DNA of 64,000 nucleotides from positions 2,208,001 through 2,272,000 of the forward strand of contig OZ245011.1 in assembly GCA_965223665.1 (NCBI GenBank), written 5' to 3'. Position 1 is the first letter of the stretch; each line of letters opens with the position of its first letter. This document shows, in pieces, positions 1 through 64,000 of this stretch. The stretch is from Nitrospinaceae bacterium. Lineage in GTDB: Bacteria > Nitrospinota > Nitrospinia > Nitrospinales > Nitrospinaceae. A program made the position numbers.

Positions 1-3000
1 ATGGCTTTCATCTACTCAATATTTTTGCAGATGATCTCGACCTTTTAAACACCACGCAGAAAAAAACTTTAGTGAAAACCTTAAAAGAGATTTATCCTCA
101 GCTGGAAGATTCGGCAACCTGCGTCGTGGCCAGTGAAATTGTGATTGAGGTCATGAGCCCTGAAGACGCCTGGGAAACTCTGAAACTTTGGATGGCCGAC
201 AGCCACCCTGCAGCTCGGGAAATCCTTCCTTATGCGTTAAGTTATTTTTACGATGAGTGTTCCCATGAAACTTTAAGAAAACGGATTTTAACCTCTCTTA
301 AAAAAATGACAACCGACCCTAATCCAAACGTTCAACTGGAAGCCGAGTTCAATTTAAAAATGCTGACCCATAAGTATTCTTAATTTTCGAAAATTTTTTA
401 CATACTCTAATTCTCACCTTGAATAAAACGCTATAAAACCACCAACATAGGCCAGAATTCCTACTAAGTTCAAACCCACTCCCAAACCTTTGTATTTTTC
501 TTTACTTTTAAGAGCTGTAATTAATCCAGTGAATAAGAAAATTAAAGATGCTAAAAACATTAACCACAAAAATACTGTAGCCCATAATACGCTTGAATGA
601 CTTCCCCAATTAAAATTTAAATTAGCGTACACAATTAAAACACCCGTTAAAATTAGCCCAACGCTTAAACTAAAGTACTTCACCGATAACGGAAGTTTTC
701 CTAGGCTTGGATTTTCTAGGTTATTTCGCATTGAAACAGTCTCGCACGTTTTCCTGTAAATTTCTGGTAAAATAATTACTGGAAATTAACTCAGGGTCGC
801 AGCATGAGTCCTGAACGTTTTTTGCGATCGATCAAAACCTGTGGGTCGTTATGCAAATATTCATTACAATTCTGGCTACCTTTTTTCTTGTATTGGGTTT
901 TTATTTTGTGAATACCCAAGGCCCGGATGCTTTTTCCTTCATGTTGTATTCTATGGAATGCGGTCTCCTGGCGGCGGTCTTTTATTCGTACAATCTTAAA
1001 AAAGTCCAAGGTGGGTTTAGAGTTGCAATGTACGTGGGAATTGTTTTAGCCAGTATCCAGTTCCTCTATTCACTCCTGATGTTTATTTTAATGGCATAAA
1101 AATTATTCCGGATGGTGCCATCAGAGGAACCCAAAACTCTCCCTGTACCCAGCGCGAACATGTCCATTGAAATCCGAGTTCCTCTTCCCTGCAAAGACAT
1201 AAATTAATTTCGCATTCAAACAGTATCGCATCCCGCTCCCAAAATTCCAACCTGCCTAAACGAAAAGGTTTGTAAAACCGCCTCCTAACCATCCCCCCTT
1301 GCTATTCAACCTATTTTGTCTGACACTGAAATTATCGAGATAAACATCACAATAATTTTGGGAATCGCCAAAACCCTTGGCGTGGGTTTCAAGTCTTTTT
1401 TCTGCAGAAAGTAAAACCCGCCCCCAAGGACCACAGCCCTTCTCTCTAAATGGAGGTGTCTTATGACATGTCGCATTTCTTCGAACCTGGGTTTCATCAA
1501 ATCCTGGATCCTTTACCAGTTGGCAGAGGAAAACTCTCCTCAAAAAGAAAGTCTGTTATGGACGGAAGAAAAAATGAAAGCCATGGTGACTTCGGAACCT
1601 GAACTGGCCCTCAGAACTTTCGGCGATATTTTAAAACTGGATTCCAGTGATCCGATCTGCACCTGTCTTGCCAACGGCCCTTTACACGAGTTTTTAGTTT
1701 TGCATGGAAATCAATTTACGAAACAACTGGATGAACTGGCTCACAAAAATGAAAAGTTTAAACAATTGCTGAGCAGCGCTTGTCATTAGACTGCACCCAA
1801 CATTAAAGGATGCCTTTCCATTTAATTTCGATCGCCGAGGTTATATTAGAAATCATCTCTTCTTTTCTCTGGCTTTACCGCGGGTGGGCGTTTTTAATTT
1901 CCTCGAAATACAGAACGTCCTGCTTACAGGAGTGGAAAAAGTCGAGCCTTCTCTGGAAATTTTTTGATGTCCTTCTTACCCTGGTTTTTTTCATCGCGGA
2001 ATGGGTATTGCTTTATGATTTATTTAAATTACTTCTGATATAGAGTTTCCCCTTCAATCAGGTAGCTCAAATCCCATCCTTCCCTATTTCCATAATTCTA
2101 CCCACACTGAAACTTATTGAAAAAAAATGGCTTTAAATCAATATCTTGCCTTTTCCGATATTTTATTCGATAATAAAAATAGTCTTTATAGGGTGCGTCT
2201 TGAGGGGAGATGGGCCATTTGGACCTTTTGAAACAAAGGTTCCTGGGACATCACCGGACCCCTGATTAAACACACCACCACATTCAAATGAACACGAAGT
2301 TTATTCACGCTTGGATTCTTTACCAGATGGCGGAGGAGAAATCTCCTAACCAGGAAAAATACTATTGGGCCGAGGAAAAAATGCAAAACCTCGTTTCCTT
2401 TGAACCTGAACTGGCCCTGGTCACTTTTTTAAATATTTTAAAACTGGATGTCAGCGAGCGAGTGCTTTCTTATCTGGCAACAGGTCCTTTGTTAGATTTT
2501 TTTGTTCTTCATGGATCCAAGTTTATTAGCTACGCAGAAGAACGGGCTCAAAACAATCCCAAGTTTAAGGAATTGTTACGCCATATGGATCAAAATACAA
2601 TTTCCGAAAACGTTTGGAAACGCATCGTCTCATTGAGAAGTGAGGATGAATAAATCTATTGACGCCCAGATGAAAGGGTAGAAGAAGAAACCTGACTTTC
2701 AACCCCATTTGTTTGTAAGTATCACCACTAAACTACGATTTTTATGAAAACTTTTCTGTCCACTCATCCAAACCGTATTCAAAGTATGGACAAGAAAACT
2801 GAATTCAAAAACCTGATCACCGAAGCGTATTTCTTACTGAAGAAATTCGGTTTTAAAAAGCGGAAGGAAACGTTTTATCTTTTACAGGATGACAATTGGG
2901 GACTGATCAATTTTCAGACCAGTCAAAAAAGTTGTCAGTCGGAAATCATTTTTACCCTCAACGTCGGCATCATGTCGCGCAGACTGTATCAATTTTTAGA

Positions 3001-63000: not shown

Positions 63001-64000
63001 CCTTCATTTGCAATTTGATACCGGAATGTCCAATTACATTGTTCTCGACCATTTTGATAAACCGTTTCATATAAGGTTCGTTGATGGCCAGGTTGCGGGA
63101 ATTAGCACGAATCTTATCGAGCGACATTTTGATCGCTTCATTAGCCGAAATATTACTGGTCACCCAATCAGCAAAATGATTCCCCAGGCCAACGGCATTG
63201 AATCCGCTGCGGGGTTGCGCTTTACGTTGGTTACTATTACCTAATGCAACCATTTTTTGACCGAGCCAGTTTAAGATTCCCACTTAGACGAACCTCGTAA
63301 AAATTTTTTTTCCGGTTGGTAAGCCTTGCTTTAATTTGTCTGCATCTTCTTCACGCTTCAACATTGCTTTCCATTCCAGGTATTCCACACGTAAATCGGC
63401 CAAGGACATTTGGGATTTGGATCGCCCCGAAATGGAATAACTGAGAGTGTCAAAATCTTTCCTCTTAATTTTTCCTGTAAAAAAATCTTCGAACGCCTGC
63501 ACCATTTGTGCAGAGATGGATCGCGCATCGTAACCAGTAGCTAATTTGATGAGATCCGGTTTTATTTGAATTTTTCCGGATTGGTATTGGAATCGCTCAG
63601 TACCATCGGTTAAAAATGAAATCCAATGGTAAATGCCTTCCTTGTAGTCGGTGGTATCTTCCTTAGCGACCTGGATTAGGTGGTCGGTATTCTCGGCGAC
63701 GGATGTCAAAACAATTTGCTTATCTACGAGAGTGAGGACATATTCCATGCTCCAGGTCGGCGCCGGATTAGTTGGAATAATTTTTTTCCATTTCAAGGTG
63801 GTGCCGGCCCAAAAGACAACGGGCTCAACTGTAGCAATGGAGTTCATAAACGGCTCCTGTATTTGCTCACAAAACCGCCACGTGATTTAGGTTTGTGACG
63901 CTTCGGAGTTTGAATGGTGTTGGGTCGTTCTTCCTCAGGTTCCACTGCAGCGGTTTTCGTTTCCGGCTTTTCAGTTTTTACTTTCTTTTTTCGCCGGCGG

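Follow-up and report, generated by a model that had tools for sequence, protein, structure and literature searches.

Roughly a fifth of the chromosome of the Nitrospinaceae bacterium studied here (genome G000) is taken up by a GC-rich block at C1:1,401,864-2,279,196 (877 kb, 20.7% of contig C1). With a probability of about two in three, this block is an ancient, partly domesticated giant island of foreign lineage that site-specific recombination inserted into the 3' end of tRNA-Glu(UUC), either before the two species of the genus split or through transfer between species. The kind of element is already known; its size is extreme. The window (the whole stretch of DNA analysed, 64,000 nucleotides starting at C1 position 2,208,001) covers the tRNA-proximal end of the island and most of a prophage that adjoins it.

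The block has a GC content of 0.431 compared with 0.370 for the rest of the chromosome, and in 20-kb steps the profile rises at ~1.4027 Mb and falls at ~2.2745 Mb. An earlier note had described this compositional step, and recomputation from its coordinates returned GC values of 0.4314 and 0.3697, with 20.65% of C1 inside. By crude ORF calls, GC3 is 0.450 in 757 block genes versus 0.309 in 2,844 outside genes, and GC3 exceeds 0.45 in 353 of the former versus 28 of the latter (6 of 2,358 outside genes in the earlier count, the present ORF calls being cruder). The 26.7 kb to the left of the block (C1:1375211-1401863) is likewise missing from the sister species G001, yet its GC is host-like.

Three direct copies of the tRNA-Glu(UUC) 3' end (att copies) are found at C1:1401864-1401929, 2236377-2236436, and 2279175-2279241, and a sensitive search of G000 detected no others. 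The left and middle copies are identical (60/60 nt), and the direct repeats of the tRNA end at both ends measure 60-66 bp. The island lies 3' of the tRNA-Glu(ttc) gene (c2279197-2279274), which is itself intact, an arrangement shared with G001; the right edge had already been placed at this tRNA with a prophage, and the prophage does adjoin it. The internal third copy indicates that the block consists of two tandem elements: E1 (C1:1401930-2236376; 834,447 bp; GC 0.4308) and E2, a 42.7-kb prophage between E1 and tRNA-Glu. The earlier description as one contiguous block is corrected in this respect, as E2 is separated from E1 by the internal att copy. The features of the window are as follows.

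Window 1-28376 (no strand): tRNA-proximal 28 kb of E1, att-bracketed, the remainder lying to the left of the window
Window 1463-5564 (+): array of small immunity-like genes (two DUF6869, DUF4304, HTH; Pfam) in a lower-GC stretch, GC 0.39-0.40
Window 10361-21933 (no strand): accessory cargo, namely a GNAT-like protein, a TonB-dependent receptor, a 975-aa chemoreceptor, a C39-like peptidase, and a CBM96-domain protein (Pfam)
Window 14551-14614 (C1:2222551-2222614; +): REP-like repeat copy, matched by model R1 and by pattern
Window 20299-20362 (C1:2228299-2228362; +): REP-like repeat copy, model R1, E 1.2e-20
Window 23476-23871 (-): CI-type repressor of the E1 integration module (Pfam Phage_CI_repr, 1.7e-8); G001 orthologue 92% identical
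Window 25121-25184 (C1:2233121-2233184; +): REP-like repeat copy, model R1 match
Window 25583-26713 (+): E1 tyrosine integrase (PF00589), 1.7 kb from the tRNA-proximal junction
Window 28377-28436 (no strand): middle att copy at the E1/E2 junction, the 3' 45 nt of tRNA-Glu plus ~16 nt downstream, 100% identical to the left copy
Window 28522-29562 (-): E2 integrase (PF00589), 38% identical to the E1 integrase
Window 31031-39390 (+): defence island in E2 with an HTH protein, AbiJ, endonuclease I, Shedu SduA, and a Dcm methylase with Vsr and EcoRII (Pfam)
Window 39590-44046 (+): two large TPR_12/TPR_10 repeat proteins of 732 and 677 aa (Pfam)
Window 44373-64000 (-): E2 genes for the tail, head, and portal of a lambda-like siphophage (Pfam)

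E2 is a lambda-like temperate siphophage, with an integrase, terminase gpA, portal, capsid, and tail set between att repeats. Its phage genes include Pfam matches to a tail fibre adaptor, a GpJ-like protein, a tape measure, a tail tube, a capsid with protease, and a lambda-family portal, and they continue past the window to terminase gpA and the tRNA-Glu at C1:2279197. E2 is missing from G001 and present only in this genome, where contig C2 is a variant of the same phage. G001 carries just two att copies, at both E1 junctions and with flanks homologous to those of G000, and the E1-side flank of the middle copy is homologous to the tRNA-proximal junction of G001. The prophage reused the same att site later, displacing E1 from the tRNA in this genome. 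These junctions also speak to whether the assembly or binning fused two organisms, as sharp GC steps in a metagenome-derived genome might suggest. The same two junctions with homologous flanks recur in a second, independently assembled species, and they are att repeats at a tRNA gene rather than arbitrary breaks, so that the chance of such a chimera is close to nil.

The integrase of E1 is the sole tyrosine integrase in its 834 kb; the genome has 13 PF00589 matches, of which only two fall within 1.40-2.28 Mb (one at the proximal end of E1 and one in E2). The G001 orthologue is 93-94% identical in amino acids and lies 3.4 kb from the tRNA-Glu of that genome. A search of the contigs of close relatives with the E1 integrase returned only this orthologue and a 41% fragment. 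The nearest relatives of the protein are found mainly in family f2, and for three of the four closest ones outside the genus the distance to a tRNA-Glu gene is 70-135 bp. Three invariant features, namely the Tyr, the GH motif, and the LRH-motif Arg (Arg-II), are kept by the E1 integrase. An Asp occupies the Arg-I position, where the canonical tyrosine-integrase motif has the first catalytic Arg, and this Asp is common to the E1 integrase, its G001 orthologue, and two f2 relatives. Four public runs from one study, with short contigs, contained no clean excision junction over window 26400-30400; loose contig ends at window 28436 resemble the tRNA-Glu genes of other organisms, and joints fall at repeat copies, so that these contigs give no sign that can be taken for excision or for an E2-free form.

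The tRNA-Glu site was compared in four genomes of three other genera. In three of them, from two genera (G002, G004, and G011), orthologues of the G000 genes at 4059771-4104055 come immediately after tRNA-Glu, with no island. In the fourth, G003, ~25 kb of lower-GC DNA (an estimate from 5-kb GC bins) follows tRNA-Glu, and homologues of four block genes (48-77% identity) occur in the 40 kb fetched after the tRNA; for DabA, the comparison was limited to the stretches fetched for this site. E1 has the features of an integrase-type island: insertion at a tRNA 3' end, direct repeats, a proximal integrase, an empty site elsewhere, and deviant composition. Beyond the distal att copy, the DNA differs from what ancestrally followed tRNA-Glu; that ancestral neighbour now lies at 4.06 Mb, and the change requires a further rearrangement. 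A single inversion spanning the terminus fits the geometry but gained no confirmation from a check with one gene per side: the G002 homologues (46% and 30% identity, of doubtful orthology) are nonadjacent, at 1.80 and 0.78 Mb.

The base signature of E1 differs from that of its host. The dinucleotide distance (delta* x1000) between E1 and its own core is 63, whereas for 200-kb chunks of the core the distance to the core averages 12 and never exceeds 28. Four 200-kb E1 chunks differ from E1 by only 4-12, and E1 differs from the G001 block by 9. The distance from E1 to samples of family f2 is 39-42 compared with 50, 52, and 107 for samples of its own family. It is very improbable that the block is instead ancestral chromosome whose GC is held high either by frequent local recombination, through GC-biased gene conversion, or because mutation there follows a different pattern. 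Broad divergence inside the block combined with tracts of recent exchange would suit such a native region, as would cargo genes that in some cases show ordinary within-family identity. Additionally, GC1/GC2/GC3 of the shared genes showed no strong disequilibrium in an amelioration check by crude codon-position lines, which fit the host itself poorly. However, a native region would not account for the empty site in three genomes of two other genera, the att repeats and integrase at the edges, the near absence of the block's repeat family from the rest of the chromosome, or a signature closer to another family than to the host.

The repeat family in question, earlier described as private, is indeed nearly so: 58 of 60 blastn matches in G000 and 88 of 89 in G001 fall inside the block, spread along its whole length. 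The unit of ~50-64 nt has a 7-bp hairpin and is present in dozens of copies, exclusively intergenic and in both orientations. Strong model matches among 120 genomes of the phylum were confined to this genus and to f2 genera g6 (21 of 23 genomes with hits) and g22 (9 of 17), where the copies sit among core genes. In these properties (unit size, hairpin, intergenic place, orientations, and copy number) the repeat resembles REP/MITE-like intergenic repeats. It differs from them in matching no Rfam family, in having no RAYT/Y1 transposase as mobiliser in any of the five genomes searched, and in being almost island-confined within the genus.

Individual cargo proteins give a mixed picture of affinity. 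For IDH the matches are G105 (84%), G003 (82%), and G002 (78%). Neither of the f2 genomes tested (G016 and G105) gave a match to PEP carboxylase, PurK, CydA, or RtcB, and f2 as a direct donor of cargo was unsupported by the seven proteins tested. In G003, of the same family as G000, homologues of IDH, PurK, CydA, SelO, and RtcB (65-82% identity) are dispersed around the chromosome.

Comparison with the sister species addresses how the island has changed. The earlier note, from a sample of 20 pieces, had claimed that the block keeps its place and order in G001 but turns over rapidly and aligns only in patches. The entire 800-kb counterpart has now been fetched and aligned, with the same outcome on each point, and G001 has a matching GC step. 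HSPs of at least 200 bp cover 49.4% of the G000 block at 64-95% identity and are mostly collinear, while the right flank of the block is 99.9% covered at 82-84% identity. Orthologues in G001 were found for 324 of 719 E1 genes versus 199 of 215 outside genes. The difference at four-fold sites has a median of 0.372 inside (10th-90th percentile 0.198-0.562) and 0.431 outside (0.322-0.519). Inside the block it is autocorrelated (r = 0.364; maximum of 1,000 shuffles 0.166), and multi-gene tracts there show much lower divergence than the core genome does. GC3 is 0.499 in low-divergence genes compared with 0.434 in the most diverged class.

Such turnover raises the possibility that the block was never a single 0.8-Mb element and instead accreted stepwise, as numerous independent insertions landed at or close to the tRNA-Glu hot spot and within DNA that had arrived before. 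Tandem use of one att site by E2, the 395 of 719 E1 genes without a G001 orthologue, a podophage-like remnant within E1, and an eCIS insertion adjoining the distal att copy are all consistent with accretion. Furthermore, GC3 is twice as variable inside the block (sd 0.090) as outside (0.044) and G001 has an extra integrase inside its block, so that part of the block must have grown by later insertions. As an account of the whole, however, accretion is unlikely, if worth serious consideration. There are only three att copies in G000 and two in G001, with the outermost pair intact and two copies identical; the 834-kb E1 has a single integrase and no transposase; its dinucleotide signature is as uniform as that of a genome; the private repeat runs along its entire length; and no gene class is richer in GC than the 324 collinear shared genes.

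The cargo of the block comprises regulators, transporters, stress genes, and a few sole-copy metabolic genes. As had been claimed, Pfam scans of ~700 ORFs recovered toxins, eukaryote-like repeat proteins, and defence genes. The claim of sole-copy metabolic genes stands for purE and purK, PEP carboxylase, and cytochrome bd (cydA and cydB) and fails for IDH, which has a second copy outside the block at C1:1138575-1140806 (80.5% amino acid identity). Of the 44 tRNA genes on C1, the block contains only 2, both duplicates of outside genes. Large protein families of the block extend outside it (e.g., 41 members inside and 29 outside), so they are not block-private; only one family, of 12 members, is wholly inside. 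Gene-strand bias was weak everywhere (0.47-0.57 on the leading strand) and was thus uninformative as a sign of foreignness.

The size and content of E1, with almost no tRNAs, are those of a chromid, and together with its uniform signature and private repeat family they would fit a former megaplasmid or chromid that carried an integrase and fused to the chromosome at tRNA-Glu. This is quite unlikely. Among the ~700 ORFs scanned with Pfam (E-value limits 1e-3 to 1e-8; ORFs of at least 100 aa outside the window), there was no plasmid replication or partition gene (Rep, ParA/ParB), relaxase, coupling protein, type IV secretion gene, or transposase. The only DnaA_N-domain protein in the block belongs to the E2 phage, and the chromosomal dnaA is at 2.93 Mb. 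GC skew is negative, the sign of the host, in all nine 100-kb bins of the block and never switches polarity, leaving no trace of a former replicon, and no small contig is a free copy of E1.

The giant island entering at tRNA-Glu may have the following history. The DNA of E1 may have come from another Nitrospinales family, of GC content ~0.42-0.50, or have spent a long time there, which would explain the GC gap, and residence in the AT-rich host would slowly reduce that GC. The cause of the gap had been left open earlier; the att repeats, conserved integrase, empty sites, and links to another Nitrospinales family add an explanation of the compartment. By continuing to swap tracts of several genes and to gain and lose cargo, it would have become the flexible-genome compartment of the genus. 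E1 is probably no longer freely losable because the sole purEK, PEP carboxylase, and cytochrome bd genes lie inside it. Several results count against the island reading: the negative scans for transfer, replication, and transposition genes, the host-like GC skew, the changed neighbour at the distal att copy, the Asp at Arg-I, the variable GC3 and extra G001 integrase, the cargo proteins that point to f2 in no clear way, and the lack of a clean excision junction in the public runs.

A more speculative reading, which we consider doubtful, is that E1 can still move and belongs to a hitherto undescribed class of giant integrative elements, of ~0.8 Mb. Such elements would use a tRNA-Glu integrase, lack recognisable conjugation and replication genes, and cross Nitrospinales lineages, including families, while keeping their own base composition, signature, and repeats. 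The att sites and integrase are intact after ~0.5 synonymous changes per site, which fits continued mobility without proving it. The same can be said of the low-divergence multi-gene tracts and of a repeat family and nearest integrase relatives found mainly in f2.

E1 resembles the symbiosis islands of Mesorhizobium (ICESym) in tRNA 3'-end insertion, direct repeats, a tRNA-proximal integrase, deviant composition, hundreds of accessory genes, presence in related species, and size class. The largest documented ICE, as given in one source, is the tripartite ICEMspSymAA22, which totals 853,775 bp and whose largest fragment measures 766,834 bp, and Mesorhizobium genomes are ~8 Mb (PMC8627217). In contrast, E1 is one contiguous 834-kb unit that makes up 20% of a 4.2-Mb chromosome and carries sole-copy biosynthetic genes. 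Since the Pfam scans recovered no relaxase, coupling protein, or type IV secretion gene, E1 is not an ICE by definition. Chromids and integrated megaplasmids are alike in size, in combining accessory and regulatory genes with a few indispensable ones, and in having their own signature and repeat family, whereas E1 is without replication and partition genes or its own skew and is bounded by integrase-type att repeats rather than homologous-recombination joints. Flexible islands and plasticity zones at tRNA hot spots share with it turnover at a fixed site, tandem integration (E2), and enrichment in defence, toxin-immunity, and surface genes. However, E1 is one to two orders of magnitude larger than these and has conserved collinear shared genes and a uniform foreign signature. 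No paper describing a Nitrospinaceae island of this kind was found, and the phrase "giant genomic island" was absent from the searched literature.

Relative to its genome, E1 would hold the size record for a contiguous tRNA-integrated island, and with no known transfer machinery it puts in question how such DNA moves. Composition-based binning would tend to split genomes of this type, and the compartment is best handled separately in comparisons of Nitrospinales gene content. Should a single integrase-bounded element indeed account for a fifth of the chromosome, the genus would have acquired, and would trade as a block, much of its ecology, including sensing, stress response, toxins, repeat proteins of the host-interaction type, phage defence, and some central metabolism.

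The assembly consists of contig C1 (OZ245011.1; 4,244,043 bp) and five small contigs. In a 20-kb profile, C1 has a GC plateau of 0.39-0.47 at about 1.40-2.28 Mb versus 0.33-0.40 elsewhere, and the edges of this block are sharp at 1-kb resolution. The earlier note had described a GC-richer fifth of the chromosome, and its coordinates do give a GC of 0.4314 versus 0.3697 for 20.65% of C1. Gene statistics are from crude ORF calls (3,601 genes: 757 inside the block and 2,844 outside). GC3 is 0.450 inside (sd 0.090, n=757) and 0.309 outside (sd 0.044, n=2,844), intergenic GC is 0.378 versus 0.30, and coding density is 0.83 versus 0.90. 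The block holds 2 of the 44 tRNA genes on C1, both duplicates of genes outside; the call for tRNA-Pro(ggg) at C1:1413816-1413910, a duplicate of the gene at 1046837, is unusually long (95 nt). Cumulative GC skew has its minimum at the dnaA gene (2.93 Mb) and peaks near 0.67 Mb, which places the block mid-replichore.

The 20 kb to the left of the block, used as a query, contain one stretch of 31-196 nt that is matched in 21 of 21 genomes (20 relatives and this genome itself), and this stretch corresponds to the 3' portion of tRNA-Glu. Three direct repeats (att copies) are found on C1, each made up of the tRNA's final 45-46 nt and the following 16-20 nt; over 60 nt there is no difference between the left and middle copies, and a short-word search revealed no fourth copy in the genome. 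The three copies indicate that the block is composed of two tandem elements, an island (E1) and a lambda-like prophage with a defence island (E2).

Features of the tRNA-Glu locus on C1
C1:1401864-1401929, left att copy, just left of the GC step
C1:2236377-2236436 (window 28377-28436), middle att copy
C1:2279175-2279241, right att copy, within the intact tRNA-Glu(ttc) gene
E1, 834,447 bp, GC 0.4308
E2, 42,738 bp, GC 0.4436
Window 25583-26713, E1 integrase, 1.7 kb inside the tRNA-proximal junction, downstream of a CI-type repressor
Window 28522-29562, E2 integrase, 86 bp inside E2

In the sister species (G001), att copies are found at 2072000-2072064 and at the tRNA-Glu gene (2835071-2835132), two in all, which gives a block of about 763 kb. 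Homology links the island-side flank at its tRNA junction with the flank of our middle copy, and likewise the inner flanks of the two left copies. Thus, both E1 junctions are orthologous and the E2 insertion is restricted to the present genome. Directly outside the distal att copy lies another insertion absent from G001 (C1:1375211-1401863; 26,653 bp), with a host-like GC of 0.371; its right-hand 19.5 kb, the part scanned with Pfam (from C1:1382327 on), encode an extracellular contractile injection system (eCIS) with gp25, CIS tape measure, eCIS core and AAA ATPase domains. The left core flank of G001 matches 1363335-1375210 at 81%.

In three genomes of the same family with a GC of 0.5-0.6 (G002, G004 and G011), tRNA-Glu is followed after a gap of about 0.2-1.6 kb by orthologues, in order, of the genes at 4059771-4104055, and no island follows the tRNA. 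Compared with two other genera, the block is therefore inserted DNA. In G003, which belongs to a further genus, the same tRNA-Glu is followed by about 25 kb of lower-GC DNA (0.41-0.43 versus 0.48 in the host; G003:C1:2311600-2339078), a length estimated from 5-kb GC bins. The 40 kb at this tRNA encode homologues of four block genes at 48-77% amino acid identity. Three of them (a sigma-54 activator, an ArsR-type HTH protein and an LMW phosphatase) are within the low-GC stretch, and the fourth, a block-type SelO, is at its far edge or slightly beyond. The distal neighbour of the block has changed relative to other genera; a single terminus-spanning inversion was considered for this change and is compatible with the geometry, but a test gave no confirmation.

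This genome has 13 matches to PF00589, and only the E1 and E2 integrases lie between 1.40 and 2.28 Mb. The best relatives of the E1 integrase outside the genus belong to another Nitrospinales family, f2 (G052, 41%; G049, 40%; G070, 36%; G090, 34%); the best match in its own family (f1) is 31% in G003, where the gene is located away from tRNA-Glu. The relatives in G052, G049 and G090 lie 70-135 bp from a tRNA-Glu(ctc) gene with a GC shift at the same point, and that in G070 is near tRNA-Gln. The alignment retains the Tyr, the GH motif and the LRH-motif Arg. Tyrosine recombinases are expected to carry the first catalytic Arg at a position where the E1 integrase, its G001 orthologue and two f2 relatives have Asp; Asp or Glu occupies this position in 5 of 7 aligned members of the clade, with the other catalytic positions kept. 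The att repeats, the conserved integrase from a tRNA-Glu-associated family, the orthologous junctions and the empty sites of other genera support site-specific integration. The G001 block contains an additional internal integrase (G001:C13:2479613-2480614; 39% identical to that of E1 and 41% to that of E2) which has no counterpart there in the present genome.

The dinucleotide signature (delta* x1000) of E1 differs from that of its own core by 63, while 200-kb core chunks differ from the core by a mean of 12 (maximum 28). Chunks of the same size differ from E1 as a whole by 4-12, and the G001 block differs from it by 9; f2 stretches are at 39-42 and same-family stretches at 50, 52 and 107. The block also has an intergenic repeat, about 50-64 nt long and with a 7-bp hairpin, that hardly occurs elsewhere in the genome and shows no preferred orientation relative to genes. 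Among intergenic segments with multiple partners, 74 of 80 are inside the block and the other 6 are beside tRNA genes, and blastn matches to the repeat fall inside the block in 58 of 60 cases here and 88 of 89 in G001 (1.04 Mb searched). Among 120 genomes of the phylum, the exact pattern has 42 copies here, 49 in G001, 1-6 in six f2 genomes and none in the other 19 same-family genomes; the reversed pattern, used as a control, is absent from all 120. The f2 copies sit among orthologues of our core genes, in DNA with a GC of 0.41-0.50. A covariance model was built from 39 copies (at most 44 candidates scored per genome, so that counts for the two sister species are "at least" values). Strong hits (E <= 1e-9) are limited to this genus and the f2 genera g6 (hits in 21 of 23 genomes) and g22 (9 of 17); same-family genera have weak hits only, with best E values of 3e-7 to 4e-4. 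The uniform signature and the private repeat argue that most of E1 shares one history.

Six Pfam scans covered C1 1382-2272 kb (ORFs >=100 aa, or >=80 aa within the window). Mobility genes comprise the two integrases, the E2 phage genes and a podophage-like remnant; no transposase, Rep, Par, relaxase or type IV secretion genes were found at these thresholds. The remnant, in E1 at about 2165.2-2169.6 kb (GP7 major capsid, head-tail connector, Bbp16), is 90% conserved in G001, and to its right are 12 ORFs of about 160 aa that form one family, along with two SLT transglycosylases.

Other gene content of the block
Metabolism and physiology: purEK, PEP carboxylase, cytochrome bd, monomeric IDH, DabAB with PII, a 2-oxoacid:ferredoxin oxidoreductase operon; many two-component systems and GGDEF proteins; HSP20, transporter and metal-homeostasis genes
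Toxin-type proteins: Rhs/YD-shell, TcdB-midN with SpvB, an Anthrax_toxA-domain protein, a Tle1-like lipase, Fic
Eukaryote-like repeat proteins: ankyrin (at least 7), TPR_12 (about 35), Sel1, WD40, LRR-Roc-COR, HEAT, WSC
Defence: AbiTii, SIR2 with HerA, NACHT, SLATT, caspase with TPR
CBM96-domain proteins: about 40, with an N-terminal CBM96-like domain; genes often in tandem, 4-6 per array (e.g. sub-stretches L019:43-6681 and L038:5746-14604)

Of E1, the window contains the final 28 kb, in which lie small immunity-like genes, genes for a TonB-dependent receptor and a chemoreceptor, and the integration module; it also contains most of E2. In E2 the integrase is followed by the defence island (AbiJ, endonuclease I, Shedu, and Dcm with Vsr and EcoRII), two TPR proteins and lambda-like tail, head and portal genes; just past the window end are terminase gpA and a tail of low GC in which a DnaA_N-domain protein is encoded, adjoining the tRNA. 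Contig C2 (36,972 bp, GC 0.435) is a variant of this prophage, sharing 92% identity with C1:2256782-2263137 over 6.4 kb, and may be the phage of a second strain or a free copy.

By tblastn, PurE, PurK, PEP carboxylase, CydA, CydB, SUI1 and a molybdopterin oxidoreductase are sole copies in the genome. IDH has a second monomeric copy outside the block (C1:1138575-1140806), 80.5% identical to the block copy and located next to tRNA-Arg(ccg), where the GC is raised (0.418). Cargo proteins were compared by amino acid identity with f1 (G002, G003, G004) and f2 (G016, G105), for which a core control gave 65-68% and 59-60%, respectively. IDH matches G105 at 84%, G003 at 82%, G016 and G002 at 78% and G004 at 76%. 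Block-type SelO matches G003 at 76%, G016 at 73% and G105 at 72%, G002 and G004 having only a paralogue at 40-41%. PurK (69%) and CydA (67%) match G003 only, RtcB matches G002 (66%) and G003 (65%), and PEP carboxylase has no match in these five genomes. The mixed identities indicate that the cargo is patchy pangenome material rather than a slice of an f2 chromosome.

The GC plateau is also present in G001, which was compared over G001:C13:2,060,001-2,860,000 and 240 kb of flanks. The earlier note had held that gene order is kept in a patchily alignable block, and this stands: HSPs of >=200 bp cover 49.4% of our block at 64-95% identity, mostly collinear with a few inversions and translocations, while alignments at 82-84% span 99.9% of the right flank. 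Reciprocal best hits number 324 of 719 genes in E1 versus 199 of 215 in the flanks, with a median amino acid identity of 0.860 inside and 0.913 outside. The median difference at four-fold sites is 0.372 inside versus 0.431 outside (10th-90th percentiles 0.198-0.562 and 0.322-0.519), with values below 0.25 for 68 of 320 genes inside and 9 of 219 outside. This difference is autocorrelated along E1 (r = 0.364; maximum 0.166 in 1,000 shuffles) and is mostly 0.05-0.35 in the left 200 kb. Nucleotide identity rises to 90-95% in several multi-kb tracts, clearly exceeding the 81-84% of the flanks. GC3 is 0.476 in genes common to G001 and 0.419 in unshared genes, and it is highest (0.499) in the least diverged class and 0.434 in the most diverged. 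This pattern is consistent with an influx from a GC-richer pool and putative subsequent drift to host composition. The wider spread of GC3, the half of the genes not shared with G001 and the additional integrases show later insertions.

A literature search found no paper on such an element in Nitrospinaceae. A systematic survey gives sizes of 11.5-155 kb for the integrative and conjugative elements (ICEs) that it reports (PMC5587801), and the largest ICE described as documented has 853,775 bp in three fragments, the biggest of 766,834 bp (PMC8627217). E1 is in the same size range but is contiguous, lacks conjugation genes and resides in a genome about half as large. Taken together, the findings point to a foreign unit that was integrated site-specifically and has been inherited or exchanged by both species.
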